DNA of 64,000 nt. It comes from Spizellomyces punctatus DAOM BR117. Lineage: Eukaryota. Positions within the stretch are counted from its first letter, which is position 1, and each line of letters begins with the position of its first letter. Location of the stretch: the NCBI GenBank assembly GCA_000182565.2, contig KQ257462.1. One strand, written 5' to 3'. Positions 1-45,883 of the stretch are shown here, piece after piece. The notes under the pieces are model-generated. The model was not told the origin of the DNA. It saw nothing but the letters and a program-made list of their open reading frames with translations, and did not search any database. The translations under genes were made by a program, and so were the position numbers.

Positions 1-62
1 ATAGATAAGGCACTTATTATATCTTGCACAGCTATTTACAGAAATCTACATATTATTGGGTC

Positions 63-6300: not shown

Positions 6301-8171
6301 CTGTGCAAGATGCAAGATACAAGAGAGTTTCAAGACATACCGTTTGCCGTCCACAAACCCATACTTAAGACCCAAACCTCCCATCTGCACTTCTTTGCCG
6401 TTCAGTAGTTCTTCTGAGGGACAAGTCGCAAGAAATTCCTTCAGCCGCTTCATCAGTCCGACGTGCGCCTGGAGTCGGTCACGTAACGTCCCACAGAATT
6501 TGTCCGCGGACTGTTTATCGCTCGTCATTTGCAGATGCAGTTTTAGTTGATGGCGAACAGTTATGGCAATTGTCGACATTTGACTGTTTATCTTTTCTAC
6601 CCGCATGATTGCGTAGAAAGGTAGAACCAAATAGCATTGATATTTTGCCGAGGAAATGAAACAAATATAAGTATCTGATAAACTGAGTCTTCCACTGAAG
6701 CTTGACTTCGTTCCTGAGATCGTGCATATTGCAGTGATTTCTTCGAGGAGACTTTCACTTGCGGGCAGGTTAAAGACTGATTGAAATTTCGCGTTTCTCT
6801 TCTGTTCTTCAAAGCTTTGCTTCAAAGGTCGCGTACCCGCTCCCGGGCCCTTTAAAGAACCAACGATCCCAGTAATAGAGCTCTGTTCCTGTTCCTGCAA
6901 CGATAACCCAGGAGCTGGCTCCGTGGCTGTGCTTTTCAACAGTTTCTGCATAGCAAGGTTTGTCAAGTGTTCTAGAAGATCATAGGTCTCATCACGGTGG
7001 AAGAGATTTGAAAACACATGCTTGATAGTAAAACAAATATAAGAAGTCCAACTCGGGAATAACGCGCGACTTTCAAAGGCACTACCTCTGTTTTATTTCT
7101 CAATTTTATTTTAATGGCATCCGCAAATACTCCGCGCTTAGATTTGTCTTTAGCTAGCTCCTCAATGTCCTTTAACTCGATCATCACCTTCGTTTCTACC
7201 CCAAAGACGAAGGAGTAGAAGCATAGATGCGACACCGATAGATACAGCCAGCCTTGGTTCAGTAGCTTTTTATGATAGGAGCAGCTATAAACTGAATTGA
7301 GCACGATAAGAATATCGTAAATATGTGCGCAATTTTCGTTGAAAGGTGCGTACAGTTCACCAGTCGTTCGTCCTCAGGCAGATGGAAAATCTGCCGCCAT
7401 GAGCGTGCAGCGGCTCGAAACTTTGCGTCGCTGGATTTCTCGTCCGTGTCTTTTTCTTTGTATTTATATTTGGGAGTCAGTGCAACTGTAATGAACCGTC
7501 GCGGCGATAGCGGGGGGGGGGGGGGGGGGCGTACCTTCACTCGTCACCAGCGATTGGAATTTGGATACCGCATATGCTTCTTTATCAGATGCATCCTCCA
7601 ACTCCACTACTTCGGGCATCAAGTTTTCTGAAAACGACATTACAGTCAAGAGATATAGTTCAAATGAAAGCATGCACAGTTTGAGTACCTTGTATCCAAG
7701 TCCAGTCTTTCTCCATTGCCTTAAGGGTGTCGGCGGTCTAAACATAGTGAACAGGAACCGGTAATAGCAATCCTCCCAGGATAGTGTATTACGTCTTTCA
7801 ACTTACTGCAACCATGTGTCCGACATCGGGACTTTCGGCACTTCTTAACAATATGCGAAATGGTGGCTGCTTTGTGTCAAGTCTGGAGTTCATTGGATTT
7901 AGAGTGTGACGACTGCTTGCATAAAACTTTCTACGAGCTCGAGACCCGTGCATGCGAACACTTACACATTTTGTATAGTGGCCCAGAGTGATTTTAGTGC
8001 TGTACCCTCCTGTTCCTTGAGACGCTGGAGGAGGAAAAGATCATTTTCCTAACATTTGGGGGCCTTATTGTAGGGGACACATGTGTGAGCTGAGCAGCGA
8101 TATAACAAGTTACTCACCTTTACCGTTTCCCAATATGAGGATATATCAACTTGAGAAGGTAAACAAAGCAT
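3332..8171 (-). CDS. GYP2: TBC-domain Rab GTPase-activating protein with GRAM domains and EF-hands (TBC1D8/9, Mdr1/Gyp2 family), multi-exon
   Basis: Spliced N-terminus [27 protein letters not shown]...PFRILL...KDWTWIQENL parallels TBC1D9; GRAM segments [10 protein letters not shown]...[15 protein letters not shown] and [28 protein letters not shown]-hands [10 protein letters not shown] and DADQDGTL. Confidence 0.9.
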
Positions 8172-8858
8172 GTTGCAGTGGATCGCTCTCGCGTCGGGTC
8201 AGTCCGCCGTCTCTGTTAACGCTGTTCCAAGCTTACGAGACCGCCATCACTTCTTCCACGTGACTTTCAATGCTGGTCCTGTCAAAAGACCAACTGAAGT
8301 CGTAGCAAGATCAGTTGGCTGCGTTCATACTGATGTTCTTGTAACCGTTGCTGAAAATGCCTTCTAGACGCTATAACAATATTCTTGCAGTATCGGCTTT
8401 TGCAATGTGCGCTTTAATGTGCGTTTTGGTTTAACCTTGTCAAGGTGTTCAAGTTTCCATGTGCTTACCATAGCAAAAAAAAAGGTCACAAAGCAGATCA
8501 TGCCCAAACTTGAGGATATTCCTGCGCAAACGCAATTACATGAGGTATAGATTTGCATGCATCTTCCATTTGGCCAACCATTGCGAGGGTGATGCAGAAA
8601 GAGCAAGCTCTGTGATTACGTAGGCGTTTGGTTTTCTCCTGCACGCGTGCGTCATCGAAAAATTGTTGTGCTTGGGCCAACCGCTCATCCTCTCCGCCTT
8701 TTTTTGCACTGCAGCAATATATTTTCATTTTTGAAATCGGCGTTTGCAAATCGTCCATTGGCGAGAAAGTACTTTTCAAACGTACGTTGCGATCTTACTA
8801 GTCCCAGTGACAGACGTTTGAGAGGCCTTGCCCATCTGAAGCCGACGTCCCTTTCACG

Positions 8859-10265
8859 ATGGCTGGCGACGCCCCCCACCTTGCGTTCCAAGCAACTCCA
8901 CTCTACCCCCATACAACTTTGTCGCTACCGAACCCACTACTTCGGCTACTGAACTATAACCCAAAAACGGGCCTCTGCCATAAAGGCTGGAATGACTTCA
9001 TCCTGGCATCACTGTTTGCTGCCCTCTTCCTCGTTTTGCGGAGGTATCTCTATACTGCTGTCTTTCCCGTATTGGCAAAACGCATGAGAGTGGCGGGTGG
9101 TCGAATGAATCGGTTAAAGTTCTCGGAACAAGCGTGGCTATTCATATGCCACACCGCATCCTGCGTTGCGGGTTCTATTCTCTTGGTCGGGAAAGACTAC
9201 GCCCCAGCGCTATTTGGAGAGAGGGAAGGGCAAAAGCACTTCTGGTTTGGATATCCGCATACACACCGATTTTTGGACCCAGTGTTTAAGGTAATTAAAA
9301 CAAGCTTTACCCCTCTGAGCCTGGTGATGGTTACAATCGCCCACGTCCTCAATATCCTAATTCCGCTCCTGACTGTGTCTCTCTAGTTGTTCTACTTTAG
9401 TATTTTGGGATATTGGTTGCATCATTGCGCTGCTCTTGCGATTGAGGGTTTTCAGCGGGTGGCATTCGAACGCGCGAAGCTCCAAGGGAGGCGAAGATTG
9501 GCCCATGCGCCAAAGCGATCAGACTTCTGGCCGTTGGCTGCTCATCACGCCATCACGGTTGCGCTGGTTGCTACATCATATTATATGAATTTCACTCGCG
9601 TGGGTCACATCGTCATTATTTTGCTTGACGTGGCAGATATCTTCCTACCGTTGGCTAAGGTAAAGCTGCATTCGAACACGTTTTTATATGGATATTGGTG
9701 GTGTCATTGGTAAACTAAAGCATTATTCTGGATTGGCCATCAGATCTTAAAATACACCCGTCATCAAACCATTTGCGATGTCGCCTTTGCGGTGTTTACA
9801 GTATCCTGGGTGATAACGCGACACTGGTATCTTTTACTTGTCTGCGTGTCCATGTGGCGGGATTCGTTATTATACATACCCGAGACATCACGAGTATGGG
9901 ATCCTTGGGGCACCGAGTGTTTCTACTCCATGAAGGTGTACTGGTTATTCCTAGGACTATTCGCGGCCTTGCAAATATTGCTTCTTTACTGGCTTGCCCT
10001 GATCGTGAAAGTGGTCATAAAGGTGGTCAGAGGCGGAACGGCCGAAGATGTGAGGAGTGATGATGAAGAAGAAGAGACTGAAGACACGCTGGAACCGAAT
10101 GAAGGACAGTCTAAGAGTTTAAGGAACCGCAAGCCTCGAGTGGGAAGACCTCTGAATACAGCCACCTTGACTTACAACAAAGGCAAAAGATCTGGCAGTG
10201 GGGTTGAACTACGAAGTGGAGATTGGGATGCGGTTAAAGAAGGCGAATTCCGGAGGCGGCATTGA
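8859..10265 (+). CDS. LAG1: Ceramide synthase (TLC/Lag1 family), 3 exons
   Basis: KFSEQAW and the Lag1p motif RSDFWPLAAHHAITVALVATSYYMNFTRVGHIVIILLDVADIFLPLAK; C-terminal EDVRSDDEEE. Introns ~9291-9386 and ~9660-9744. LAG1 versus LAC1 orthology not resolved. Confidence 0.9.
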
Positions 10266-10789
10266 CGTTGATGGTGTGTAATAGTGGTATTCGGTGGTAT
10301 TTAGGGTTGATGAATGTAGGTTTAAGCATTCTTAATGACTGGAGAATTATGTCTTGTAAAAGCAATTTCTGTATCAGAGCGGCAAATAGCACAGTCTGTC
10401 TTTTTATAAGAGCGGAAGAGATGTAGCATGCCAAGGGGGTGTGGGTACTAATACAACTAATGTGTCGGTCCCTCCACATTTCGTTCCCTCTAATTTGGGG
10501 AAATCATCGTTCAGGTAATATTTCGCGTCCATCCACTGTTGGACTGAAATGCTTGGCAGAAGTCCGCGGATAGAATAGTCTTGGTATTTATAACCATCAA
10601 AGGGCTGAGAAGGATCGCTTCACCCACCGGACTGGGTGGCGCTTGGTTACTGGCAGGTGTCCCCAAAACACCATGGCGTTGGGATTGCAGTGATGATATC
10701 GCTGAGACAAATCTCTGGGATAGGAACCTCGATATATCGTACTCAGCATCTCGGCTGGAGATCCGTTCATGTGTCATTATTTCGGACCT

Positions 10790-12722
10790 TCATATCACCG
10801 TGCCTTCTTTTGCGGACCACACTCGTATCAGCCCATCTGCACTTCCAACAACTACGTACTTGTCATCAAATGCGAGCCCGGTTACTGCTTTCTCAACTTC
10901 GTTCTGGCAGTTTTCTCCCATCAGTAGGACTGGTCCCTCTCCGCCTTCAATTGTGCACCCTTTCAGGCAATACATGCTTTTCCCTGTCAAATGATTCCAT
11001 ACGATGCACCTCCCGTCGCTGCTACCAGCTATCAATTTCCATTCATCCAATTGCGCGCACAAAGTCCATTTACGCATTGTGGTTGCTGGCAATAAGTTCT
11101 CAGTTGCATTTCCGTCAGCCGCCACTGGCCCCGTTCCAGTGCCCGTGGTGTGTCTGGGAGTGGATAAGGTAGCTACAGGTCGGGATGCCACTCGTACCGC
11201 GTCTGTCTTATATACACCCTTCAGTTTGAAGGTAGTTCTTGCGTTTGCCCAATCCCGTATGTTTTCATAAACGATACCTGATCCGAGATCAGTTTCGTAT
11301 GGACACACATCATAGAAAAACACTCGCCCTGAGAAGGTGCTGAATAGCAAAGATCGGCCATTATAGCAGATACACGAGACGGGATCGTGATCCCCTCCCG
11401 ATGTTCTTCTCATATCTGCATCGTGGTGCATTTTTCGCAAGGAGAAGAACACAGGCAGCTCGAGAGACGTATGGATTTTTACGATGCTCAGACAGTTTCC
11501 GCTATGGTAATGACAAGTGAGCCACACTTCGACATAATTGATATTTATCCATTACAACACATTGTCACCTTTGGACGTGCCATATTCGAAGACAACCCTG
11601 AACATCTCCGCTGATCAGTACATATTGCGTGAAGTCCAAACATTTAATGCCGGCCTGATGTCCTGTCAGCGTGCGCAGCATAGTAACTTTATCCAACTGA
11701 TTCTCAACGGCAACAGTTTTCGTATTTCGACCATTTCTGGTGGGTGACCGACTCCGAGAAATTTTAGAATTATTGGCCGGAGCTTGAGCCAGTTCCCAAA
11801 TCTTCACAGTTCGATCAGCCGAACCGGTTATCAGAATCATAGAACTGAATTTTAGACAAGTGATTGCATCCGTATGGCCCACGGAAGCATGCAAGAGCGT
11901 CCCGGTTTTGCTCGCCCATATGCGCACCATACCATCTGCACTGATATATATTGCACATTGTTAGTACCTTTTTGGCTTATTGAACTGAAGTTCCTACCTT
12001 CCGGTGATAATCTGGCGGTCGTCGAACTGCACACATGTAAAATCCTGTCCACTTAAACTCATCACGCATTCACCTGTGATCGCGTCGTGCATTCGGACCA
12101 GCTTATCTGCACCAGCAGTCACAATTCGTTTTCCATCGAAGCACAAAGACAAAATGGCCAAGTTGTGCGCCTTGAATTGTATGCATTCTAGTTGACCTTC
12201 AGTCCAATTGCTCAATGAGTGAAGACGCTTCGCATTGATTTTCATTGCTTCATGGCATTGATAATATTCTGTGGCCAACGTTCCTAGTCCAATTCGAGTA
12301 TACAGCTTTTGCCACAGGAGCCTGTCTTTCAAAACCTGGCGCCATGCCTTACTGACCTGTGCTACTGTGCAAAAGTCTCGCGGATGTATATAGAAAACAA
12401 TGCGGTGGCTAGCTTCTCGCGGGAGAAGCCGCAAGAAGTCTCTGTGAAGCCGCGGCATAACAGCAGCTAAAAATACCATGTCTGCGGGGTTGCATTGCTT
12501 AAGAAGAGCAAGGAGAATGCTATGTCGATGCGGAGGAGACAGCTGCGGGAAAGATTGGAGGAATTGCGCTGTTACAGACTCGGATGTATGGGGGAAGTGG
12601 TTCAGTTCCAAGGCTGGGGATGCAATCGGCGGACGGTTTGGGACACGACGTTTTGAATCGGGAAGGATTCGTCGCTGGGCGCTAGCAGGTCGATGCATAT
12701 CGGCAGCATTCCGATGGTTCAT
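10790..12722 (-). CDS. F-box/WD40 protein (Cdc4/Met30/beta-TrCP-like SCF substrate receptor); start uncertain
   Basis: F-box RDFLRLLPREASHRIVFYIHPRDFCTVAQVSKAW followed by WD40 repeats GHTDAITCLKF...TGSADRTVKIW, GHQAGIKCLDF and FDDKYVVVGSADGLIRVW. Confidence 0.85.
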
Positions 12723-13273
12723 AGGGGCATATGAAAGAACACCCAGAATACACCATCTGCAATTCTCGTTTCTGTCAGCTTGCTTATGTCAGGGTCATAT
12801 AAGTTCGCGCCAGTCGTCATTCCCAGAATCTTCTAAGGATTTTTGCTCTGTACTCTAACAAATCCACATGTCTACGTACATGGGAGTGAGATTTTCTGCA
12901 AAGCGATAACATTTGTAAGGGACATAAGCCAGAAGTATTTTGAAGACCAAGAGGACCAAGAATCGTCAAAACACGGCCCGTCCTATTAAATGTCAGTAAT
13001 GCATCGAAAATATCAATCCCGAGGGACACCGAATTCTCCTCGGCAGTTGAAGCTATTTGAAGGTGACATAGATGGGCTTCCGCATCAAGGGTATGTGTTG
13101 TTCTTGACATGTCACAAATCGGCCTACAGCTTGAACGGTTGCGATGAACGGTTGCGATTGAGCCAGTCATCACGACGAATCACGTGCATATGAAGGATCA
13201 CGTGCCAACTTGGTTTGACTGCGCTTCTGCATTTGCCCTTCGTACAGTTCTGCGAAGACAACTCGAAATCATC

Positions 13274-15598
13274 ATGGCTGGAGCGGATTCAGACCCTCAA
13301 AGTACATCTTCTCACGGGAATCGCTCCCCATCCCCTGCTGAGGATAGGAGGCTTCGTCCATCTGCTTCGATGTCTCCTTCACCTGGTCCGCTACCTGTTT
13401 CCGCATCGCTTCCATCGCACCACACCCCTTCGTCTGGATCATACTCTCCAAACAATGATAGCGAGCAGATCCAGTCAGTGGAACGGCCAACGGACCGGCC
13501 CGCGACAACGATTGGACGAGCGGGGGGTGCCTATATTCCACCCGCACGGCTCAGGGCTATGCAGGCAGCAATCACTGACAAAAGCAGCCCTGAATACCAA
13601 CGAATGACATGGGAAGCTTTGAAGAAGAGCATAAATGGTCTGATCAACAAAGTGAATACTGGCAATATAAAAAATATTGTGGTGGAACTTTTCGGCGAGA
13701 ACCTTATTCGCGGCCGTGGGTTGCTATGTCGGAGTATTATGAAGGCTCAAGCTGCGTCATTACCGTTCACCCCTGTGTATGCAGCCTTGGTCGCTGTCGT
13801 CAACACGAAATTTCCACAAATTGGTGAACTACTGCTGATACGGTTGGTGGTTCAATTTCGTCGTGCATATAAAAGAAGCGATAAGGCAGTTTGCCTTGCG
13901 GGAGCCAAATTTCTTGCCCACATTGTCAATCAAAAGGTCGCGCACGAGATTATAGCCTTACAGCTACTGACTCTGCTCCTGGAAAGACCCACCGATGATT
14001 CGGTCGAGGTCGGAGTGGGATTTATGCGAGACTGCGGTGCTTATTTGTCTGATATCTCGCCCAAAGCCACCAACGGAGTATTTGACCGTTTTCGGGCGAT
14101 TCTGCATGAAGGGGCCATCGATAAGCGTACACAGTACATGGTTGAGGTGCTTTTTCAAGTACGAAAGGATAAATTCAAAGACAATCCGGCGGTCCCAGAG
14201 GAGTTAGATTTGGTAGATGAAGAAGATCAAATGACCCATATGGTTTCTTTGGACGACGAGGATATTAACGTTGAGGAGGGCTGCAACGTTTTCAAGTATG
14301 ATCCTAATTATCTTCAAAATGAGGAAAAATATCAGCAGATGAAGAAGGAGATACTGGGAGAAGGCTCCGATGACGAGGATGAGGAGGAGGAAGCCAGTGA
14401 TGATGAAGAGGAGGAAGATGAATCAGGGATGGTCCGCGCTGCTCAAGAGCGACTGCAAATACAGGATGAGACCAATACGAATCTGATTAACCTGAGACGT
14501 GCCATATACTTGACTATAATGTCGAGTTTGAATTTTGAAGAATGTGCCCACAAGTGCATGAAGCTGAAAATCCAGCCGGGGCAGGAAATGGAGCTGGTGA
14601 ACATGATTATCGAGTGCTGTGGACAAGAGAGAACGTATGTTAATTTCTACGGTCTTCTGGGAGAGCGCTTCTGCAGAATCAATAAAGCTTGGTCGGATGC
14701 CTTCTGTCAGGCCTTTGAAGAAACTTACAAGACCATCCATCGATATGAAACAAATCGACTCCGAAACATCGCGAAGTTCTTTGCTCATCTTCTTTCTTCC
14801 GATGCTCTCACGTGGGAGGTTTTCGCTTTAATAAGGCTTACCGAAGCAGACACGACATCGTCCTCACGTATTTTCATCAAAATTTTGTTCCAAGACTTGT
14901 GCGAAGCATTTGGTCTGAAGAAGCTCTATGAGCGTCTCAGTGAGCCAACCATGATCGTTCAAGTGCAGACAGAAGCCGGATTCATAACGCGTGGTGTTTT
15001 CGAGGGTTTGTTCCCAAAAGATAATCCTCGCAATACGCGATTTGCGATAAATTATTTCACAAGTATCGGTCTTGGTGGTCTAACAGAGGATCTGCGAGAG
15101 TACCTCAAGAACGCGCCGAAATTGATCATGGCTCAGCAGCAGGAAGTCGAGTCGGATACAGATTCTTCCGACTCGTCGGATTCTAGCAGTGACTCCGAGA
15201 GTGATTCAGAAAGTGATGACAGCGACTCAGATAGCACGTCTGGGTCTGAGTCTGAGTCTGACCATTCGAATTCAGCGCGGCTTTCTGGCAGAAGCACGCG
15301 GGCTCCTCACCCGGACCTGGACCGAGCAAGATCACGGTACTCGAAATATGACGACAGAAAGGATCATAGCTACAACGGAGAAAAAGAGCGGTCGTCCGTG
15401 AGGAGTGATCGTCGAAATGACCGTTACAGCAGAGAAGACGAGAGCAGTCCCGGGCGAGACGGTGGTAGGGGTAGGATGGGTGATAGGTATCGCAGAGACA
15501 GTTATCCAAAGCGCCGAAGAAGCAACACGCGCTCCGTCTCACGTAGTCCTCGTCGTGATCGTGGTGACGGCCGTGAGAAGAGGTACCGTCGCGACTAA
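13274..15598 (+). CDS. CWC22: Pre-mRNA splicing factor CWC22 (MIF4G + MA3), single exon
   Basis: [11 protein letters not shown]...[66 protein letters not shown]-rich tail. Confidence 0.97.
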
Positions 15599-16339
15599 CC
15601 CTTTGCCTGATGGCGGGTTTGTTCTGTACCTATACTTTTGTGTACAGAACATGGAGCATGCACTTTTTGCAGACGAGGGGATTTTCAAATGGCAATGAGG
15701 AAGTCGCGACCATATTTTTCGGCAGTTTAGGTAGACCTGTACATGATAATATGTATCTAAAGCGATGCGCAGCGACATTCCAATTACTTGTGTCAAGAAT
15801 TGGGCACTCGTTACTATGGCAAATCTACAGCACCACTCTCACCCTCATTCCTAATATATGTATTATAGTTAGGTATCCATGCCCCTGATGTCTTTCTTCC
15901 ATCTACTTTTTTCACAGCAGGCTCTATTGAGATTGAACGGTCATTCCACTTAAGGTGTCGTTCTAGTCATTTCCGTTAATTCCAGTCCCGCTCCACCGTC
16001 GCTTCAATGGAGACTACATGCCAGGCTGTTGACGCCTCCGGCAGTTGTGATGACTGCATCTGCGTAGCCAAGATTGGTGTAAGCCCCCCAGCCGAGTTTT
16101 CTCGCCTCGGTGGGTGAGCTCGGCAAGACTTCTGAGATCTAGTGGGGGTACAGAAGCTGTGCGAAGCTGTTCCTAAGGCTACTCGCCCAGTTGGGTCTTT
16201 CTCGGCGCCCGCAGCTGTAGTGACAACCAAGGAGTCGTCCAACAACGAATTGGTGGGTGTGCGCGACCGCCGGTATTTGGCCAGGGCTTCCGCCGGCTCT
16301 CAAGTGTCTTCGTGGTATGCCAACGAGTCAGGAGGAGCA

Positions 16340-17440
16340 AACCCAGAAAACCAGACATCTCACTCCGCCCTCAACGGCAAAATCCCTTTTGAAGCCTGGT
16401 ACAGCAAGAAACCAGATGTCAGCCATCTCTGCGTTTGGAATGCTGCTGCAGAAAGCTCTTTACGGCCCGAAACAATCGCCAGGGTACTGGAACAAGAAGT
16501 TTCACAGGATGTTTACCAGTAGACATGAAGAAGCCAAGCTCGGACGGACAGTTTCAAAAGAATCACGGCAGAGACTGCCTTTACTTTGAAGAAAGGACTG
16601 GGATAATAATTGCAGCGGTTGTGCGCGACCTTCTATCGTGGGTTTACACACGGACATCCCACAGCGGCCCTTTTCAAGAATTCAAGATAGCTGAAAACGC
16701 CTTGGCGAGCTACTATGTGGGATTGGAAGTCATCCACAACGACGGCTATCACCTTCAAAAAACTGGCTACGTAGACGCTCTACTTCAGTATGGCAGAATG
16801 CAATTCTATCGCTACCCCGATGGACACCTTGACCAGCACCTTCAAAATCGACAGCAAACTACATGACGGCAAACGATCTGGGTGGACTGTCGGAAGCTTT
16901 GTATGGCTTACCTGCACACGACCAGATAATGCTTTCGTCGTAAATCTTCTCGCTCGCTACGTTCTCGTCCAACAGTTAACCACTGCTCAGCAGCTACACG
17001 CATCCTACACTTCCTCAAGGAACCAGAACGCTTGGCTTTTCACCGCGGACGTGGACACACCAATCGCCCACTGGTTCCGCCTTCCTCGCTGATAAAACGG
17101 CTATTTCCTGGTCTTCCCGCAACTCACCGTCGCCTCGTCTACAGTAGAAGCTGAATATATGAGTGTAACCGCCGCCGCCCGGGAAGCCATGTACCTCGCA
17201 GCATGCTTACTAGAATCACTCGAGGACTTTCCAGCAAGCATTCACACTTGCGATTTCTCCTTCATCACACCGATGATGTCCCAGCTCGCGGAGGGGCTCA
17301 GCTTTTGGCAAACATTGCTGCCTGTTAGCAACCGAAGATGTGGTCTAACATCACCACACCATGGCCTGGTGCACGCTCCTTCTAAAAGCCACGCCAAGCC
17401 TCTCGATCGGGCTTACGCAATCGCTGGCTCTCACTAAGAC
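16340..17440 (+). mobile_element. Degenerate Ty1/Copia retrotransposon pol relic (integrase end, RT, RNase H)
   Basis: Frameshifted pieces in Copia order: HSALNGKIPFEAWYSKKPDVSHL (post-integrase), YYVGLEV...GYVDALL / MAECNSIATPM, VGSFVWLTCTRPDNAFVVNLLARY (RT), ISWSS...TVASSTVEAEYMSVTAAAREAMYL (RNase H). No LTRs recognised. Confidence 0.88.
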
Positions 17441-18219
17441 CGAAGGCAAGCTTAGAAGGATGCCCCCTTTTTTTCTTCACCACTTGTCCGGCCTCCTTTT
17501 CAACACAATCACCGTACTACTTATTTGCTGCACCGAACCTGTTTTCTTCATCTCCAAAATGATCACGATGGCCGCTGCAGCTCCCGCGATACCCACCTGG
17601 CTCAACAAGGAGCCCAAGTCGCCTCGGCACACGAAGACGGATACCCATGGATGAATTCGAGCTCTGCTTTTGCGAGTACAAAAATCAATCGAGTGCTCGG
17701 TATCCAGGTGACCGTCTGGGTCGATGGGTGGATTGTCCAGCTTTAGAACGACCTCAATGCCCATCTCAGAACACCTGGGTACCAGGACTGGCTGAGCGAT
17801 GGGGCCAAGCAACCATACGCGAAGGGTCAGCCCTTCTCAGCACACATTGCGGAACCCTACATCAAGGCCCCCGGCGGTGGAGAAGCACCAGCGGGGATGG
17901 TTGCCGAACGTGCAGAAAAAGCTTGGAAAGGTGCGAGACGGCGGTTAGGCTCCACGCCGAGGTCCCGCAGCACGCCGTCGGATGCGCCAAAACGGCTCCC
18001 TTCACCACGTGGCCGTGTCATGCCACCCACGACTTTGCCGAGATTGCCATCGAAGCCGCTAGAGGCCTTGCTGTGACGCTGGCGGGCACGGCCGAATAGT
18101 ACGTACACACGTTAGACCCCTGCGCCTATTACAGTTCTCCCGCGATGAAGCTAAGGACTGCCGCGGAATTCTTCACGGCCATCTACGTAACCCGAATGTC
18201 CCACTCCGTGCGCCCAGCA

Positions 18220-18348
18220 GCAGTAATAGTAGTATTATATGTAGTTCGATCAGTCGCCTTAATGATCATAGCCGGAAAAAATGTAATGGGTGCTATGCAA
18301 AGACGGATAGGACCGAATAAAGTAGGATATTCAGGATAGTTACAACCG
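18220..18348 (+). pseudogene. nad1: NUMT: mitochondrial nad1 5' fragment
   Basis: SVALMIIAGKNVMGAMQRRIGPNKVGYSG-(TAG)-LQP matches ND1 consensus VAF.T..ERK..G.MQ.R.GPN.VG..GLLQP; A/T-ending codons typical of mtDNA. Confidence 0.9.
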
Positions 18349-18595
18349 AAGAAGCGAGCGGTTAATATCGAAATCTAACAAAAACGCAGGAAACTTTAAG
18401 ACAACCTGCAGGTAGTATACATGTTAGACACATAATTGTGAAGAAATGATCTGTTTATGAGTCGCTTCAGTAAAATAGATAGACCGTCTGTTTGGATTAT
18501 GTTTACAGGTATCGCGTATAAGATATTATTATGGTTTCTCTTTCAAAACTTAAGGGAAGATTAAGACCATTTATATAATACATCTAAAGGTCCAT
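18349..18595 (+). pseudogene. NUMT continuation: truncated mitochondrial group I intron
   Basis: nad1 similarity stops after LQP and AT-rich sequence follows, with P/Q-like elements ACGCAGGAAA and AACCTGCAGG (GCAGG 18386-18390 pairs with CCTGC 18405-18409) and a TAGACCGTC...ATCGCG segment reminiscent of fungal IB introns. The usual U before the 5' splice site is not seen. Confidence 0.55.
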
Positions 18596-18809
18596 CAGTA
18601 CCATGTTTCCTGATTCGGCATCCCGGTGGAGGTCGTCGGGCTCGGCGGCCTGCCCACCGTGCCCGATTCCAGGACGTAGCCGTGACGCTCAAGGTCGTGC
18701 ATCACCTGTCGGCCGGCGCGTCGCTGGCCGGGCTGCTGACCGGGCCACGCTAGAGGCTGGTGGACCTCAGGGAGCGTCGGGTCTCCGGGGTCGGGGGGCT
18801 ACTTCAGTA

Positions 18810-19146
18810 GTCTGACGGCAACGCACCACGTCGCGGGGCGGCATCGCCAGCTTGGTCTCGACGTCGACGATCAGCGGGTCGATATCGGTGCATCCTCCTT
18901 GACCTCCGAGATCGTGGAGAACTCGTGCAGCACGCACTCAATCCGGATGCTCATGCCCGCGGCACCGGGGATTGAAGACAGGAGGGTGCGGCGGGGCGAG
19001 TTGCCGACGGTGTCGCCGAAGCCCGGCTCCAGCGGCTCGATGGTGAACCGGGACCGGAACTCGTCGTCCTGTACTTCGGTGAGGGGCGGCCGCTGTGCGA
19101 TGAGCACTTTAGTACTCTTTTTCTGCGGCGCCCGCTACATGACTGC
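18810..19146 (-). pseudogene. rpoA: Degraded actinobacterial RNA polymerase alpha subunit fragment with upstream leader
   Basis: GTG start 19107: [72 protein letters not shown], close to Actinobacteria RpoA (MLIAQRP...[27 protein letters not shown]); after a frameshift [20 protein letters not shown] matches a later RpoA segment; GC-rich codons. Confidence 0.93.
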
Positions 19147-19199
19147 TGCGATCTTGCATTCGCTGGGGCGCACTCCTGTTTTTTACGACCATCAATGAT

Positions 19200-19424
19200 C
19201 ACTTCTTCTGACTCTTTGTCGATCGATTCTTCTTTTATTAACAGTTGAAGATGCCATCGAATCATCACCGGTTCTCTGATGTTGACCAACGTCCATTTCG
19301 CGAAGCCTTCTGATTCGATGGCACATTCGTTGAAGTTGCCATCGAATCGTTGCCGCATTGTCTTGTCGCTTCTTCTGCCTCTTTGTCGATTTTTTTTTCT
19401 TGGTTGTAGTTGCCATCGAATTAT
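19200..19424. repeat. Short repeat block: three direct copies of a ~22 nt unit plus one inverted copy
   Basis: GTTG(A/T)AG(A/T)TGCCATCGAAT at 19244, 19329 and 19403; inverted GATTCGATGGCA at 19312-19323; second unit TC(A/G)CTTCTTCTG(A/C)CTCTTTGTCGAT twice. Confidence 0.85.
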
Positions 19425-20553
19425 TGTCGGTTTTCCAAGGACGCGTGGATGTTTTTAACTTGCCGCGCTACCCAACGGGGTCCACAAAATTCCCACGCCC
19501 TGGACCCAATGACGGCCCACGCAGAGTCGTCCCTCGCCAACGCTGCGATCGGAAAGCGCCTACATGAACCACGCCGCTCCCAACAGCCACCCCACACCTC
19601 CTCTACTCACAAGGAGCGTCCCGCTTTACATCGTCAAGGACATTCTCTTCCGGGAACACACCGACTACCTGTTTCCATCTTGATTGGTCGGCGCAAACCG
19701 TTGGCGAAAGATGGGCATTTGGGTTGACCGCTCAAGTCTCTAGTTATCGAGAAAGGGCCAGCGACGGCCAGAGCCAATTGGGGCCTGTGTCGGTTTTTCT
19801 CTGGGGCCTGGTTTTCCCTCGGCTCAGTCGGCGGGTAGAGCCAGCCAGCCAGGCATTACCGCCAGGTCTTGGGGACTGTCGGCGACAGTCTGGTTGACCA
19901 TTTTTGCAGTAAGCGCGGTGTGCTATCGACTCATTGCCGGTTTTCTAAGGAAAAGACGCAATTCCCTCTAGGTTATGTTGCCGCACAATTTACAGACCAG
20001 ATCTGGTTCTGTGCCAATGTCGGTGGCGTACGAAAGTAAGCCTGCCATACTGGCAACAGATTCCCACGGCAGAAGTACCAGGGCTCACAACCCACTACTA
20101 GTAAGCTGGCAAAATCCATATTGTATTCTTAGGTCTTGTAAGATGGATCATGTTCGTGCCCGTTCTGCGCTGTGTACGTAATCTCCGCTTGTCTGGTCAT
20201 ATTACAAGTCACATGACCTGGCTGAGAACTCCGCTGTTAACAGTAAGTTTGATCTATGACTACATTTATTGGTTAGTGTGAATAGCGCTTCAAAAGCTAC
20301 TTTGTTAGCTACTATTCAATACTTGGTGTGGAGAAGACGATGAGAATGAGTAGGTGGATCAATAGGTCCAAACGATAGCCTCGCACGATATTTGAGTAGG
20401 CTATGGGTCAGTTTCTTCGTTCGAGTCGCAATATCTTGCAACATAGATTGCAGTTCAAAGCCAATTTTGAGGACAAAATTCTAAGTTAGGAAGATTCGCC
20501 TATGCTGCTACTAACTGCCCTCGATTTTCAGTGAGAGCTTCCGCACTCTCATG

Positions 20554-22166
20554 CTATGTATCCTCAGGAGTGGCAGCGTGACGTTCAAAACTGACCCTAC
20601 TTGATAAGGAGTGGTTTTCCGAGGTCTCAGAACTTTCCAGTATCGAGAAAGTATCTTCAACCTCAATGATCAGCCCATGTTTAAGCGGCGAAGAGATCTT
20701 AACCACGGCAGCTTCTCCACCACGTTCTGGCGATGAGCCGTATAAAGCCAACGGTGAAAATGGCGACGAAGTCGAAGATGCTGAGGACGCGGAATCGCAA
20801 ACGATGGGAGAAGCCAATGTGGAAGACTCGGAGGCAGATGACGACGCAGCCTGCAACGCTGGAATAGTTTCCAGTACGGTAGGCGGGTCGGAGAAGGCTG
20901 GAGAGTTACCGAACAAAGTTGCACGTTCCGATTCCGATATACTAGATAGAGTACCTTGTGTGTCGCCACTCACTACGCTGAAGCGATCCCCGCGTGGGAA
21001 CACAGGATCCGGTAACGTGGTAATGACCCGAGGAGCGAGTCTTTTGTCGGGAGAAGCAGTTGATATGGGAGCGACACCGTCCGTCGGTGGTTCGACACCT
21101 TTCGCTAGCAAGAGGCGTCAAGTAAGCGTCAACGCAACTGCCGATAGGTGCGACGTACTGCTTTTGGTTTCACCGGCCTTTATGTCCATCTTTGCGCCTC
21201 GTGGAACTGAATTGGAGATATCTGTTCTCCCGTTTCAGTGTGCGCTTGGATATATTGGAAAGTCTCGTTGCGCCGTCTCAGGCCGCAATTTATACTTACG
21301 CATTACGGACACAATCCCGCCTAGTTCTACGAGTTCCGTTTGACTACCGATAGGATCTGAGAAAGGATTACCCGCAAGAGAGATACCTAATTTGACAGCG
21401 TTTTCAGCGCATGATTTAACATACGGTCTTAAAATGCAGAAGAGCTTACCTTTCAGCGCCGGCAGCTTACTGAATATATCATTGACAGATGATAGCTGGT
21501 TGTTGCTGATGCCGAAAAATTGCTACTAAACTACATCAGTCTCCTATGATTAATATCCACTTGTTTTGATGAATATACCAGTCGTGTAAGCTTTGCCATC
21601 GACTCTGGTATCTCAGTGATCTTGTTGTCCGACAAAGAAAGAGACAACAGAGTGTCAATGTCACATATCGATTCCGGGACATACGACAATTGATTATTGG
21701 AAAGATTCAATCTCGTCAGTTGTCCAAGCTTATCCAAGCAAGCGTCTTCTATTGCAGAAGAAGTTAGGCGGTTGGCTCCCAAAGACAGAGTTTCCAGTAA
21801 GAACAGCTGATTGAAACAGGGAGGAAGACTGGTGAGGTGGTTGGAGCTGTTGACAGCAGATTTTGTTAATATTACTTCAGAGAATCTATTTATTCAGGAT
21901 TCCATACCTCAAATGGAGTACTCTCAAGCTTTTAATCGAACACAGTTCAGGAGGTAGTGAGGATATGTTGTTATTACTATAATATATGGATCAGGAAGTC
22001 GGGTCTGCAAACGTAAGTGATTGACATCCAAGGCATAGCTAATTGCATGTCGCAAAGGCAGTATATTTCCCACCTTAAGTTCAGTATAACCAGTGACTTT
22101 ATCGCTAGGACCGTCGCCGGGATCGAGTCCAGCGACGAGTGAGCGAGTTGGACCACCTGGCATCAA
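20554..22166 (-). CDS. Leucine-rich repeat protein with Ser-rich C-terminus, multi-exon; start uncertain
   Basis: LRR exons NNNISSLPPELCSIKSLRVLHL, LTRLNLSNNQLSYVPESICDIDTLLSLSLSDNKITEIP and a LAGNPF cap, followed by a long low-complexity exon. Confidence 0.75.
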
Positions 22167-22458
22167 GAAGCATCGGTCAAAAACCCAGGCTCACATGCGA
22201 AACGGCCGATTCGGTAATACCTCCCCTCCTCCGCGCAGATCATCCTCCTTCCGTCGTGCTTTCATATTTGAGGAGTGTGTAAACTTTCAATTGGGTCAAT
22301 AGACTTGCTGTCGCTAGTTATGCTGACTAATCAATTACTGTGCCATGTTCTTCATCTGCACGTGATGCTAATTGGTGATCCATAACCAAGTTCTGCGACC
22401 AACAGACGAGGTTCCTCCCTTTTCGCGCAACTCGCTTTGTCCACGGAACATTGTGAAC

Positions 22459-23399
<941 letters not shown>

Positions 23400-23675
23400 G
23401 GGGACATTGGGCCGGCAATCGTCTTTCTGCCGCGATTGTCGATATGTACAGGCATTTTTCAATACAATATTCGTGTTGCGGAATCGCTTTTGTGTTGTCA
23501 TTGTGGATCATATTGCTAGATGTATTGCCAAATGAACCTTGTTTTTATATTAAGATATGGAGGGTCGTGGCCATATTCCAACAATATTTAACCAACACGA
23601 GAGTTTCCCTAAGCTCGTCTATTTAAGCGACAGAATGCCAGGAATCTATTCTCATAGTCCCAACCAGTACATTAC

Positions 23676-25842
23676 TTAAGTGAAATAGTACTTAGGACCA
23701 CCGCCTCCTTCCGGAACTACAGCAGCGGGATGATTGATAAGTAAGCGGTACAACGCATAGTTGCCCAAAAGAACGTACCGGTCCAGTCAATGTTCTGGCT
23801 AGGGTCCTTGATATCGCATGTTTTACAGTGAATACAATTTTGGGCGTTGATCTGGAATCGCTTCTTGCCCGGATTTTGTTCGTCATCAAGGTACTCATAG
23901 ACACCCGCTAAATCCCGGATTGTGTCAGTAACCAGAAGCACATTGAAAGGAGAAACCCTCCGTACCAGGGCAAAATTTCTGTTCGGGTCCACCATATACT
24001 GCATAGTTTGTCTCGAGTTGCTCTTTTGGTCCCCTTTGCAATCTCAGATGCACGGGCTGGTTCTCTTCGTGATTAGTTCCCGTGCGACTAACATTCTCCA
24101 GAAGGTCAAAACTTATCACGCCATCCGGTTTGGGATACTCAATGGGTTTAACATCTTTTAAAGGTTTCAACGTGGCATAGTCAGGCTCGGGATGCTTGAA
24201 TGTCCATGGAACACGTCCTTTGAGCAAGAGTGTATCAAGCCCAGCATACGCGATTCCTCCAAACAGACCGAGGGGATTGTGGAAAGCAGGCCGAACGTTG
24301 CGCACTTCCCATAATTCCTTGTAGACCCAAGAGTTCTTAATATTTGACTCGTACGCATCCAATGTAATAGGCCCCTCGGTTTCTGCACTCAGAGCATCGT
24401 AGGCGGCATCGGCAGCAAGCATACCTACATGAAACGAAAGCTTGTTGAGCGAGATGTTCTACTGTTCCGCAGGCCGTAGCGAAATCACATACCGCTTTTC
24501 ATTGCTGTATGCGTGCCCTTAATCTTTGGCACATTCAGAAACCCAGCAGTGCACCCGATCAACGCGCCACCTGGGAACACAAGCTTTGGGATACTTTGAT
24601 ATCCCCCTTCATTGATTGCACGGGCGCCGTAACTGATTATTTTTCCACCTTCCAAATACTTGCGGATAGCTGGGTGCTGTTTATATCTCTGGAACTCCTT
24701 GTATGGGCTTAGCGTTGGATTTTCGTAATCCAGCGCTACAACGTAACCGATTGTACACTTATTGTCCTCGAAATGGTACATGAACGAGCCACCATAGGTT
24801 TTTATGTCCATTGGCCAGCCGACAGAGTGCAAGACAAGACCGGCTTCAAACTTTTCTGGAGCAAGCTCCCACACCTATAAAAAAATCACCAGCTGAGTAC
24901 CCGACATCCAGAAACCAGTCAGAAATGTCACGCATCTACCTCCTTCAGTCCAATTCCGTACGTTTGCGGTTGTGAGTCTTTTCGTAAGTCAAATTTCCTT
25001 GATATCCTCTTTGTCAAGTGACCGTGGCAGCCCTCAGCGAAAAGTGTAACCTTGGCATGAATTTCCATTCCTCGCTCGAAGTTGTCCTTTGGTCTCCCAT
25101 CCCGTCCGATTCCAACGTCATTAGTGGCTATACCCTTCACTGACCCATCCTCGTCGTACAAAACCTAAAATCGCACGCTTACTCTGATGTGCGTCGCATA
25201 TGACTACAAACTTCAGAACCCTACCTCACTGGCAGCAAAACTGGGGTAAATTTCAACACCCAGCTCCTCCGCTTGCTCCCCTAACCATCTTACAAAATTG
25301 GAGAGGGAGACAATGTAATTGCCTTTGTTATTCATTTGAGGAGGATGGGGAAGGGGAATCGCATGTTTTTCGGTTAGGAACAACATCTTATCCTTTGCGG
25401 CAGGGGTGTTAAGGGGGGCACCCTTCTCTTTCCAGTCAGGAATAAGCTCGTTTAAGGCACGGGGCTCGAGAACAGCACCAGATAAAATGTGCGCTCCTAC
25501 TTCGCTGCCCTTCTCTACCACAAAAACCCGCAATTCCTTGCCCTCTTCGTTGGCTCTTTGCTTTAGTCGAATCGCTGCACTTAGACCAGCAGGTCCGGCT
25601 CCAACGATGCACACGTCCACCTCGTCTGCGTAGCGTTCAGCATTCAAAACTTCCAATGTTTCCTGATCCAGATCATTCACGGCTGTTGCCTGCCTTTGTA
25701 CCAGTGTCGTCGCAAACCCACGGACAATCCGCCGAGATCCAGTTATGATAGCAGGTCGTACTATGGTCGCCGGGATTCGCGATGAGGCTCTTCGTAAAGT
25801 GAGCGACGTGGGCCGTCCAACGGAACGAAGCCAGAGAGTCAT
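23676..25842 (-). CDS. ETFDH: Electron transfer flavoprotein-ubiquinone oxidoreductase
   Basis: [53 protein letters not shown], Fe-S motif [18 protein letters not shown], terminal [10 protein letters not shown]. Confidence 0.97.
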
Positions 25843-26147
25843 GTCAGCGTTTATAAAATTATAGCAACCAGCAATTAGAGCGAATTTATGAAGTAAAATA
25901 CAAGGAGAGGTGTTCTTGGCACTAAAGGAGCGTGGTGGAAGATGAATTCGACGAGTCGTGCCAGATGGATTGTGCAGCTGTGGAAAGCGTAGCTTTGCAA
26001 ATCGAGATGCGATCGGCGACAACCGGGGGTCACAGAACAATGACATCATGTGATACTTGTCACGTGGACATCCAAATTGGAAAGCCAAACTTGACATGGG
26101 TTAAAATTGTTTAATCAAGAACTACTGTACATTGCCTATCTACTAGG

Positions 26148-28692
26148 CTATGGATTCAACTGTTCTACATATTCGTGCTTCACGGTCGCCCCAAACGCGC
26201 CTCCAGCACCGCACCAGGAAGTCGATATCTATAGTTGCGTATGAGATAGTTTCAATCAATACTTACTGGGAGATTCCGGACACTTACGATACACGGCAGG
26301 TCTGGATGCCAGCTTACATCCCGCGTAACCTGTGGATATGAGGGATGTCAAAAATTTTGACAAAACAACCAGCGATCAGACGTTTGCATGACAAGCAGAT
26401 CCCTTACTCCTCCTTTATGCATCATACGGGGACGCAATAACTCAAAGATGGCGTGATTTGCCAATTCGGCGTCATCAAACGAAGCCGCTTTAAGCGCGTC
26501 AGCTGGATCCAGCGCTTGGACAAGTGTGCCATCTAGGGCAAAAATGCGGATAATTCCATCCTCACTTCCCGTATAGACAAACCTATAAAATTTTGAGATT
26601 TCATATGAAGGTACGACAACACTGATCAACCCACGAATCAGACCTTTGACCAGTGCTTGCAGGGGGTGAAAAGTGACACCGAATCAACGTTTTGAGGACT
26701 GAATTTGGCGCCTCCAATCGTTAAGTGCCTCGGACCATTCATTTCCGAACCGAATGTAACCCACCGCTATGTCCTGTAAAAGTCTGCACAGAACAGTCCT
26801 TTGGATGACGAAATTCAACCGACCCAGGATAGCGCATAATCCTGTAATCCCAATCTTCGCTAGATAGAAGGAAATATTGTGAAATGGTCCGTCTTGATAA
26901 TCTTCTCTTCTCGCCGACTCTTAAAATGCCGTTTTACCTGTAGTACCCAGTTCTCAAAGTTAGATCTTTCCTCACTTGATTTGGTTCCATCATCTTCCGC
27001 ACGTCCCTGCAAGGAGCGCATGAAATTTGTGTCGTGCACTACCTGAGCATGTCTTTCCCCTTACCACATTTTCATGTGTTGATCTTTGCCGTTCGTTAAA
27101 GCGTACCGATTGTCGCCCTTCGAAGACACGTATGTGATTCCTTCAGTATGTCCAACAAGAACCCCTGCTGGTTGTGCATTCCTGCCAAGGGAGCGGCGAT
27201 CCCAGACCTGGCCATGGTAGTAGTTACGAATTATTGAACATCCACCGGGCAATATCGAGACCATCGCCCACCTTCACAAACGAATCGTCGCTTGCGGAAA
27301 AGAGAACGTGTGAAGACATTGGTTCTGCATAGCAGACTAAACATTGCATGTCAGTAATTTGTCAGGAAAATCTGACCCTAGGGACGTACCTGCATTGACA
27401 TCGTCAGTGTGCCCAGGTATTTGGTGCAGTATAGACCGAGTTTCGATGTCATATACTGCCATGTGTGCATCAGCCACTTTTCCTGTAAGCCTCAAGGTGT
27501 TGAGTCACATAACGTACCCACAATAAGATTATTGCTGGTTCCTGCGACAATCTCCCGCCCGTCTCCAGAAAAACGAATCGACCAAATCTATGATAGGAGC
27601 TGTAGTGATCCATCGGCCTTTCTCTGGAATGGTTAAGCAGCTGACCCCAAAATTGCTATCAAAATGCTGATCAAAGTCCAGCGGAATCTGCTCAGGATCA
27701 TCCCTGTCCAATTGTGCTCGTGTAAGATGAACTATCGGTGTAATCGACGAATAGATCATATGCCTAAATTATGGTACATCAGTGATGAACCTAGTAATAT
27801 TCAGTCAGCTGTGACCTCCTACCGGTTGTCTGGGGAGAGTGCACAATCTTGCAGTGAAAGCATTCTTATGTTACTGGCATGCACGGACGGACATGCAGAT
27901 CAGAAAATATTTCTTTCGTGTTTACCTGTTATGGTCCATCGACCAACCTCGGCATTGATGCTCCGCTGTCGTCTAATATCATTCAAATCCGAGGTGTCAT
28001 AAAGGTGTACATGGAAATCTTGTGTACAGGAGAAGAAGAACTTCCCATCCTCTAGATGACAGCAACATATTTAGTGTTACATTTGTCTAGGTGTTGCAGG
28101 AAACTCTAGATTTACCGACCTGAAAATTGTCCTGAATAAGCGCGAGCTCCGTATTTGTCAACCACAGCCTTGGTCTGATTTGGAATAAATCTCTGGAGGA
28201 GTTCAACCATAATTTCGCATTCAGCATAATGCAGCACTGGTGTTTGTCGCGCAACTAATGCCCTTTCGCGCATCCTATTTCACTTCTAGAAAATGGTCGC
28301 GTATAAAGTCTGCAGCATGACGATACCTTCGCAATGGGAAGGGTATTTTGCGTGTTCATGAGTCCCGTTTCTCTCGACTTAAGAATCCTGTAAACAGAGT
28401 GTTTCCTCCTCTCTGCGGCAGAACTTGCTCCGGCTGGGGTTTGGGTAGCATCTTCGGATCGATTGTCCTTATGTAAGTACGGCGTCTTCCGCGGATTCAG
28501 ATGCGATGATCCTCCTTGGCTTAATGCGCTTGATAATATAAATTGGACTGCTTCGCTGTTATCAAGCTGCAACTCGTCGTCGTATTCGCCCTCCAGTCCA
28601 TCAAAGTCCATAAAGTCATCCTCCATTTCTTCAAAATCATCTTCTTCCTCCTCTTCGTATTCTCTATCATCGTCGGATGCGTCTGTTTCCAT
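26148..28692 (-). CDS. DCAF11: WD40 protein DCAF11/WDR23 (LEC14B-like); start uncertain
   Basis: GHTDDVNA, VWDRRSL...GVLVGHTEGITYVSSKGDNRYALTNGKDQ, VLKTLIRCHFSP, RFVYTGSEDG, RDVSWHP. Confidence 0.92.
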
Positions 28693-28966
28693 TTTTACGG
28701 CATTGTCAGCATTAGCGAAGGAACATTGTAGGTGAACACGATGCGTCACACGGGGTTGCTGATTTGGTAATCGAGGCAGACCATCACATGACTCAGCTTG
28801 TCCCAACCCAACAAGCTGTAACCCAAGCAATTCCGCTACTTTTACAGAATCCCGATCCATCCCCAGTGCTTGAATTCTCGTTAATTTCATATCCATTTCT
28901 GCGGATCCCGCCGCCACGAATCTGCCGCTATAACGGAGACGTTCTCTACGCTCATGATTTTCAGCT

Positions 28967-31610: not shown

Positions 31611-31797
31611 GGTTGGACGTTACTATTACATCCATCTTCAGAGAGTTCTTTGTAAATATTTCTGGTTGAGGATGGGATACTGGACACTCGAGGGTTTACT
31701 GTACACTACCACTGCTCGCTCACATGCTAATTTAGCAATCTAGCTTTGCTTTTTGATTCGAATATGTACAAATATTTCACATTGCAATTGCGTGACT

Positions 31798-32777: not shown

Positions 32778-32935
32778 TCCCGCTGCTTGTGAAGTGAGGC
32801 TTTTTCGAGCTCCCCAGATACTAGCATCATCGAAATCATCATGTGGAGACATTAACCGGCTATAGGCGGATCAAATGCGTGATGACGTAAATCAACTTGT
32901 TGGGGAAACGCAATCTCAACTCTCACCTCTCCAAG

Positions 32936-45718: not shown

Positions 45719-45883
45719 AAACTCCTGTCTTGGACATTGATTCCGATCTCACGTCACAGGGACAGGCAAACACAGGCCATCAACTCGCAAAACAAGGAAT
45801 AAACAGAAAGGCCACACATCACATCATTTCCGTGATATATAATGGCACACTCTAAACCAATATTTAAACACATCAATACAACA

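Follow-up and report, generated by a model that had tools for sequence, protein, structure and literature searches.

Several described systems resemble parts of a locus that we analysed in the chytrid Spizellomyces punctatus DAOM BR117, in which mitochondrial and actinobacterial DNA lie side by side in the nuclear spacer between a CWC22-like gene and a leucine-rich repeat (LRR) gene. In yeasts, Ricchetti in 1999, Moore and Haber in 1996 and Yu and Gabriel in 1999 reportedly described the capture of mitochondrial DNA (mtDNA) or retrotransposon cDNA at double-strand breaks. Break repair mediated by mitochondrial DNA copied into the nucleus (NUMTs) is said to occur in primates, and Wolbachia inserts in arthropods are reportedly neutrally evolving fossils of bacterial DNA. 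Nuclear mosaics of mitochondrial and plastid DNA (“numins”) with signatures of non-homologous end joining have been described in plants (Portugez, Martin and Hazkani-Covo 2018, PMC6215612). Co-integration of mtDNA with transforming vector DNA was reported in 16 mutants of Schizosaccharomyces pombe (PMC3418178), and exogenous DNA has been argued to be captured by alternative end joining (PMC7329468). Actinomycetia are among the donors of chytrid xenologs (PMC11291939). Taken one by one, NUMTs, mosaic organelle insertions and bacterial inserts in decay are all known. A natural insertion made of mitochondrial plus bacterial DNA was not found in published full texts, a coverage that leaves out most subscription journals and is weak evidence of absence.

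The window, that is, the whole stretch of DNA that was analysed, comprises 64,000 nucleotides of contig KQ257462.1 (GCA_000182565.2), and all positions are those of the window. The original prediction, made from the letters of the sequence, had described positions 15950-19911 as a gene-free mosaic island joining retrotransposon, mitochondrial and bacterial DNA. The mosaic of fragments of different origin proved real and finer-grained than claimed; a mitochondrial intron was not supported, the GC-rich bacterial DNA turned out to come from two genes, and the hairpin near the island's end is ordinary. We estimate at about 0.6 the probability that positions 18216-19176 are a neutral, decayed scar of an end-joining repair that captured mixed extrachromosomal DNA, and this scar may extend left into the DNA at 17303-18215. 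The identified foreign pieces measure 68-296 bp, differ in orientation and have three sources, namely the mitochondrion and two bacterial loci that are unlinked. Their identity, borders, orientation and decay can be read directly, and they are present in independent data. Four sequencing runs were compared: X4 (2011 RNA-derived contigs), X10, X19 (2026 RNA) and X20 (2026 chromatin immunoprecipitation (ChIP), raw 38-nt reads). X4 is taken as RNA-derived because its contigs skip GT..AG introns. From left to right, the patch consists of:

18216-18348, plus strand: decayed NUMT of 133 bp, nad1 codons 3-46 (X4 mitochondrial contig, Pfam NADHdh)
18349-18615, no strand assigned: AT-rich piece of 267 bp, GC 0.33, which differs from what follows in the mature mitochondrial message
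18616-18760, plus strand: 145-bp fragment of a gene for a UvrD/PcrA-like SF1 helicase, covering about residues 473-521 (reference frame more than 1020 aa)
18761-18823, no strand assigned: GC-rich spacer of 63 nt; the reference helicase sequence diverges after 18760
18824-18891, minus strand: rpoA fragment B, about codons 186-208, 60/68 identical to positions 2560-2627 of locus L032 (Actinoallomurus vinaceus)
18881-19107, minus strand: rpoA fragment A, which covers codons 1-76; its start codon is now GTG (19107-19105)
19108-19176, minus strand: bacterial rpsD-rpoA intergenic DNA, 69 nt; homology stops in the loop of the reference's hairpin

GC values confirmed all three abrupt composition switches that had been pointed out, with steps from 0.58 to 0.33 near 18220, from 0.33 to 0.71 near 18600 and from 0.60 to 0.45 near 19150. 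In 150-nt windows (mean 0.478, standard deviation 0.057), a GC of at least 0.66 is confined in the whole 64 kb to 18601-18875 and 18901-19100.

The predicted nad1 fragment was upheld by three kinds of evidence. The frame 18100-18336 matches Pfam NADHdh (E 4.5e-6), and ND1 chains of the PDB were matched. A 924-nt contig of X4, at a depth of 1003.7 (nuclear pieces 3-100), has its only match at 18216-18348, where 10 letters differ and 2 gaps occur. On both sides of this match the contig is unlike the window: AT-rich sequence ending in ATGAT precedes it, and beyond 18348 the contig reads on in the nad1 frame (TTTGCTGACGGGATCAAATTG..., read as FADGIKL (FADGIKLILK)). The NUMT is about 7.5% diverged from the true mitochondrial transcript (10/133), and X20 raw reads hold both versions, the window letter being found in 5/17 reads at 18306 and in 3/7 at 18239. 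The piece is of the fungus's own mitochondrial origin and is a distinct nuclear copy. An in-frame TAG at 18337-18339 corresponds to nad1 codon 43, where ND1 proteins have Leu. It appears to be shared with the mitochondrion, as it is not among the differences listed between the window and the mitochondrial contig or reads, two of the contig's ten differences not being itemised. If this TAG is truly mitochondrial, the organelle would read UAG as sense, which suggests a mitochondrial code such as that of Spizellomyces-type chytrids or some green algae. As a further lead, the GC content of the window (0.478) and its gene structure agree with a chytrid.

The AT-rich neighbour had been read as a mitochondrial intron beside nad1. 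This was not borne out: no Rfam family and no intron model was found at E≤1 in 15800-20400, and no mitochondrial-depth read, contig or variant read lies on 18349-18615 in the four runs. The border 18348/18349 is preceded by G and begins with AAGAAG, which fits the splice-site rules of neither group I nor group II introns. A search of plasmids and phages with 18349-18615 gave no match, and the piece has no open frame under mitochondrial codes 4 or 16. It may still hold a partial or diverged intron, as spliced RNA alone could not show one.

To the right of the AT-rich piece, positions 18616-18751/60 share 79-83% nucleotide identity with one locus per genome in 5/5 actinobacterial genomes (E down to 5e-34). 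The reference frame, of more than 1020 aa, carries the UvrD-helicase and UvrD_C domains. In the window the helicase piece has a 1-nt deletion near 18667 and a TGG>TAG stop at 18751-18753. The 63-nt spacer at 18761-18823 was part of the query searched against these five genomes and gave no significant match. Genes adjoining rpoA were rejected as a source of 18600-18823, since tblastx against 80 rpoA loci returned low-complexity, out-of-frame matches to the 3' part of rplQ only.

The rpoA pieces were recognized at the protein level, the minus-strand frame 18874-19134 matching RpoA chains from residue 2 (best Streptomyces, 7vpd_A, E 1.3e-27). A scan of species-representative genomes for rpoA loci gave 599 pattern matches, of which 481 were confirmed; the analysis used the 80 best of them, each of which aligns to the window. 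The top ones among these best 80 of 481 belong to Actinomadura, Spirillospora and Actinoallomurus, with a nucleotide identity of 86-88% to the Actinoallomurus loci. By blastn, 18881-19176 (codons 1-76 plus about 69 nt upstream) is identical to A. vinaceus L032 at 256/297 positions. The bacterial DNA runs to 19176 and does not end near 19150 as had been proposed. Fragments A and B are collinear and overlap by 11 nt, with about 330 bp (codons ~77-185) missing between them. They are joined on a 7-nt microhomology, GTCGGTG, which is present at both reference sites.

In relatives, the two genes are far apart, the helicase lying at 1.87 Mb and rpoA at 10.47 Mb in genome G002, and at 3.05 and 6.20 Mb, respectively, in genome G005. 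As they also stand in opposite orientation in the window, the pieces are not one eroded block. The very GC-rich DNA predicted here is therefore actinobacterial as claimed, and consists of fragments of two unlinked genes in opposite orientation, with a ~330-bp deletion in rpoA, instead of a single block.

Both bacterial pieces have lost constraint. Among the rpoA columns that are at least 95% invariant in the 80 loci, 9/135 are changed in the window (codon position 1, 3/57; position 2, 5/62; position 3, 1/16), and 2/33 invariant columns are changed in the upstream non-coding part. For the helicase piece, the window differs at 8/81 columns that are at least 90% invariant in 27 references (codon positions 1 to 3, 2/31, 4/39 and 2/11). 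Such an even spread over codon positions, at sites fixed in all sampled bacteria, means drift without function and rules out a living contaminant. With the frameshift, the stop, the internal deletion and the 10 letters and 2 gaps of the NUMT, these changes bear out the substitutions and indels that had been noticed in the coding pieces, and the view that the integration is old and not a fresh contamination. The bacterial patch is thus non-functional transferred DNA: bacterial at the nucleotide level, linked to the host on its right side and freed of constraint. Change per piece amounts to 6.7% for rpoA (9/135), 9.9% for the helicase (8/81) and 7.5% for the NUMT (10/133), so that the three pieces have decayed alike, which, on small counts, is compatible with one age. 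A mutation bias like that of repeat-induced point mutation was considered and set aside, for the invariant bacterial columns show no clear signature of it: their 17 changes are a mixture of 6 C>T, 3 T>C and 8 of other kinds.

The donor was approached with a sample of 61 genomes of the order, evenly drawn. The helicase piece matched 42/61 of them and the rpoA piece 58/61 (41/60 and 57/60, respectively, without G006). Genomes G001 and G061 head both lists, and the five best rpoA genomes are all within the seven best helicase genomes. The rpoA and helicase bit scores correlate with a Spearman coefficient of 0.48 (n=40, G006 left out), the related genomes not being independent of each other, so that its p-value is indicative only. 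None of the conclusions depends on G006, which is unpublished. In a maximum-likelihood tree of the window and 79/80 loci (the locus without a piece-B match was left out), the nearest rows are Actinoallomurus, and the terminal branch of the window is 0.19 long, against a median of 0.02. These comparisons favour one and the same donor lineage for both bacterial pieces, with Actinoallomurus-like actinobacteria closest.

Actinobacterial-type DNA appears restricted to the patch. The control segments 1-17400, 17400-18230, 19150-20450 and 20451-40450 had matches in 0/5 actinobacterial genomes, and no other such DNA was found in the remaining 57.4 kb searched. Control 40451-60450 gave matches of 68-69% only, plus one short match of 85%, in and beside a gene for an AMP-binding enzyme. 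This gene lies on the minus strand (Pfam 3.8e-34 for the frame 52078-52800) and shows, at 51571-51611 and 52330-52593, 68-69% nucleotide identity over 159-242 nt to genes in 2/5 of the genomes. The short 85% match is collinear with these matches. The similarity reflects either ordinary conservation of the family or an old functional transfer.

Independent reads carry the patch. An X4 contig covers 18785-19000 with one other letter and bridges 18824 and the B/A join. A second one covers 19097-19335 with no other letter and bridges 19176, linking the bacterial intergenic DNA to the repeat block on its right. X20 covers 30/30 bins of the stretch, with 3264/3481 reads at least 99% alike and one read partly on it. 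In X10, two short contigs fall on 18998-19057, where rpoA is most conserved; each has 2 other letters, and one of them runs on unlike the window. These X10 contigs were rejected as support for the island and are probably the rpoA of a genuine actinobacterium in that sample, present together with transcripts of S. punctatus.

The patch is set in a spacer that contains other features, listed here with the flanking genes:

13148-15598, plus strand: CWC22-like gene, left flank; 816-aa open frame with Pfam MIF4G (1.2e-16) and MA3 (4.6e-28)
about 16000-17302, plus strand: truncated, frame-shifted Ty1/copia pol relic (integrase C-terminus, reverse transcriptase, RNase H); the part left of 16443 by reading only
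15904-17325, minus strand: spliced antisense transcript across the Copia relic, with two introns (about 16395-16515 and 17151-17210) that read GT..AG on this strand
17303-18215, no strand assigned: GC-rich stretch, GC up to 0.635, flat by codon position (0.61/0.62/0.58)
19177-19450, no strand assigned: local repeat block; its units, about 75-85 bp long, include TGCCATCGAAT (direct in 3, inverted in 1)
19875-19892, no strand assigned: small hairpin with a 7-8 bp stem; z -2.27, 7/200 shuffles fold as well
20416-21893, minus strand: 3' part of the LRR gene, right flank; three short introns (CT..AC skips in spliced contigs of X4 and X10)

Poly(A) addition to the CWC22-like transcript occurs at ~15783, with A-tails on RNA reads behind that position. 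On the other side, LRR motifs are read in minus-strand frames at 21235-21893, and the last coding frame of this gene, 20557-21117, is without a Pfam match. Because the poly(A) end of the CWC22-like gene and the minus-strand LRR gene bound the interval, it is a 3'-to-3' spacer of ~4.6 kb.

The Copia relic in the left part of the spacer was found as predicted, through its homologs. An exhaustive phmmer search with the open reading frame (ORF) 16775-17089 gave 26 proteins at E<=0.001, and RVT_2 was present in 8/9 of the matches scanned (the long ones of the 26). All 37 tblastn matches of the 26 proteins fall inside 16775-17302 on the plus strand. A direct Pfam match to RVT_2 stayed below threshold (16443-16517, E 0.11), a word-indexed protein search with the Copia ORF yielded 34 candidates of which none scored, and the Atlas lead for this stretch was to Ty1/copia reverse transcriptase clusters. 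The frame is broken into at least 5 pieces, and no long terminal repeats (LTRs) were found, there being no long direct repeats on its flanks. With integrase, RVT_2 and RNase H in copia order and with neither LTRs nor an intact polyprotein frame, the stretch reads as a relic and not an element. Its density of disabling lesions is not obviously above that of the bacterial pieces, and it is either a separate insertion that is older or a fragment of captured cDNA whose age is similar.

RNA antisense to this relic is seen in X4 contigs (16151-16378, and 16516-17325 spliced) with two CT..AC skips and no other letters, in X19 minus-strand reads on 15904-17307, and in X10. The longest ATG-started ORF of the spliced model is 59 aa, and the RNA is apparently non-coding. 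In X20, the depth climbs gradually from ~6 to ~118 in 16372-17775, with a summit at 16840-17307 and almost all reads matching perfectly. A second, smaller rise (depth 13-25) lies at 19414-20115. These rises look more like ChIP peaks, perhaps at promoters of minus-strand RNAs, than like repeat copies.

Between the relic and the NUMT, the GC-rich stretch 17303-18215 has no Pfam match, no DNA or protein match in the five actinobacterial genomes and no codon periodicity. Its Atlas recognition was low (1565), with meaningless neighbours.

To the right of the patch, the local repeat block was confirmed by counts of TGCCATCGAAT against shuffles. Four exact copies lie in 19252-19421, and 7 matches with at most one mismatch were counted against 1.35 expected, a number reached in 0/100 shuffles. 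A hairpin with a 12-bp stem lies at 19312-19348. The unit recurs in diverged form at 19920-19945, with 3 mismatches to a pattern of 26 nt (2 matches reached in 0/100 shuffles), and the local repeat therefore reaches past the block first marked. Copies with one mismatch lie at 18045, left of the patch, and at the distant positions 21594 and 41951. The one at 18045 may be a chance occurrence and was not taken as a sign that the patch splits a repeat array.

How the patch may have formed can be proposed as follows. The chromosome would have broken in the spacer between the 3' ends of the CWC22-like and LRR genes, and the break would have been closed by end joining, with several short loose pieces of DNA pasted in. 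The filler would have comprised 133 bp of the fungus's own nad1, ~145 bp of a UvrD-like helicase gene, ~365 bp of an rpoA 5' region and two or three further pieces, both bacterial pieces coming from one Actinoallomurus-like soil actinobacterium. The ~330-bp loss in rpoA at the 7-nt microhomology would have occurred during repair or later, and all pieces would then have drifted without selection. We infer the break, the end-joining mechanism, the single timing and the route of the bacterial DNA to the nucleus from the pattern of the pieces: they are short and of mixed source, with a join on microhomology and no transposon termini, which is the pattern of filler-DNA end joining. Of the two origins first offered for the captured DNA, patchwork repair of a double-strand break thus fits these short, mixed-source pieces. 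A narrower proposal, that a single repair event brought DNA of a free-living actinobacterium and the cell's own mtDNA, present together in the nucleus, into one break, is tentative, and we would give it slightly less than an even chance.

Several points weigh against this scar interpretation. In the one allele examined, a single event looks the same as several. The 267- and 63-nt spacers between identified pieces could be native DNA, which would make the insertions separate. The argument from equal age is based on small counts, and the mitochondrial lineage has changed too. Placement in the rpoA tree is weakly supported, as no starred clade holds the window. Independent contigs bridge 3/7 junctions (18824, 18881-18891 and 19176); 18216, 18349, 18616 and 18760 are covered by binned depth only and not bridged individually. 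The X20 depth averages ~3.4 over 17776-19179, compared with ~6 for the left and ~9 for the right flank, and is lowest, at 1.15, in 18478-18711, the bin that holds the AT-to-GC switch and the 18616 junction. This low depth likely comes from composition bias. Finally, X4, which is filed under a different organism code, may be the same strain as the assembly.

The spacer could also be a hotspot, fragile or permissive for insertion, in which the Copia sequence, the NUMT and a bacterial fragment or two arrived through separate repair events over time. The 267- and 63-nt spacers would suit such a history, as would the Copia relic, an insert of a different kind, and the location between two 3' ends, where insertions are tolerated. 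However, the three datable pieces have decayed alike, two captures from the same rare donor lineage 63 nt apart would be a coincidence, and no further actinobacterial-type DNA occurs in the remaining 57.4 kb searched. We consider a hotspot unlikely; a single event, or several in a tight cluster, agrees better with the similar decay and the shared donor lineage than a long-lived hotspot does.

The other origin first offered, cargo of a fragment-capturing transposon of the Helitron or Pack type, is very improbable. The repeat block and the small hairpins on the right side could be read in its favour. The hairpin-bearing end, however, is unremarkable by its shuffle scores, and no CTRR was seen after it (by reading). 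Neither terminal inverted repeats, flanking direct repeats nor a target-site duplication bounding the island was found, no second copy of the island was found within the 64-kb window, and the raw-read depth over the patch is not above that of the flanks. As Helitron and Pack-type elements take up host DNA from the nucleus, they could have carried bacterial and mitochondrial DNA only if it was already nuclear.

Misjoining of mitochondrial and contaminant actinobacterial reads to nuclear reads, giving a chimeric assembly, is hardly credible, even with the abrupt composition jumps, the lowest X20 depth (1.15) in the bin with the 18616 junction and four junctions without an individual contig bridge. 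In a living contaminant, rpoA and the helicase gene would be intact, whereas the pieces seen here have changes at invariant first and second codon positions as well as a frameshift, a stop and a 330-bp internal deletion. The NUMT differs at 10/133 positions from the mitochondrion, with both versions in X20 reads. The decayed versions recur in 2011 and 2026 runs, and bacterial DNA and repeat block are continuous in an X4 contig that has no other letter. A chimera would need three separately decayed pseudogene fragments elsewhere in the genome, which were then misjoined.

The spacer had been called gene-free, which holds in so far as no protein is encoded and fails at the RNA level, with the spliced antisense RNA over Copia and minus-strand X19 reads on 18478-18945 (depth 7.4 and 3.6). 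Together with the X4 contigs 18785-19000 and 19097-19335 (depth ~4.5), these reads reveal low-level transcription of the bacterial patch, in an RNA that is sense to the rpoA fragment and probably ends in the AT-rich piece. Retention of a domesticated patch for a function of this minus-strand RNA or of a small ORF, to which these same reads and contigs could point, can be dismissed as scarcely plausible, as changes fall over all codon positions, the frames are broken, no family matched any frame and expression is low compared with neighbouring genes.

The patch, seen as a repair scar, does nothing for the cell, and its value is that of a record of bacterial DNA entering a eukaryotic nucleus. 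Intact, useful genes are the usual basis for inferring horizontal gene transfer (HGT) into eukaryotes such as fungi, and the entry step is almost never seen. The mosaic shows such entry without the filter of selection, as short naked fragments of mixed sources, among them random pieces of two essential bacterial genes, that would have been taken in by end joining and left to decay. If the single-event reading is true, the locus would be structural evidence that bacteria-to-fungus transfer shares the end-joining filler route of NUMTs, and that most such transfers are short, random, non-functional and missed by proteome-based HGT surveys. If 64 kb show one such locus, a genome-wide count of sub-kilobase bacterial fragments near NUMTs could give a raw rate of entry, which could be compared with the handful of retained xenologs.

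Compared with described systems, the locus is like numins in form, which are likewise short fragments of different extranuclear origin, joined at one nuclear site, non-functional and decaying, for which end joining is proposed, the fragments meeting before or during integration (PMC6215612). Here, the host is not a plant, and what accompanies the mitochondrial fragment is DNA from two unlinked genes of a free-living actinobacterium instead of plastid DNA. The captures at yeast breaks share the ligation of exogenous and mitochondrial fragments at one chromosomal site, retrotransposon sequence being another class of filler. Those were reportedly laboratory events at known breaks, whereas the present one is natural, old and decayed, with a break that is inferred. 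Wolbachia inserts are also said to be non-functional bacterial gene fragments that decay in nuclear DNA. Their donors are reportedly intracellular germline endosymbionts and the inserts often large, whereas here the donors are free-living soil actinobacteria and the pieces measure 68-296 bp. The bacterial xenologs of fungi share the same broad donor class, Actinomycetia, in chytrids (PMC11291939). That survey is based on proteomes and takes in only intact, expressed genes, whereas the patch in S. punctatus is a non-coding by-product of the kind that such pipelines do not see.

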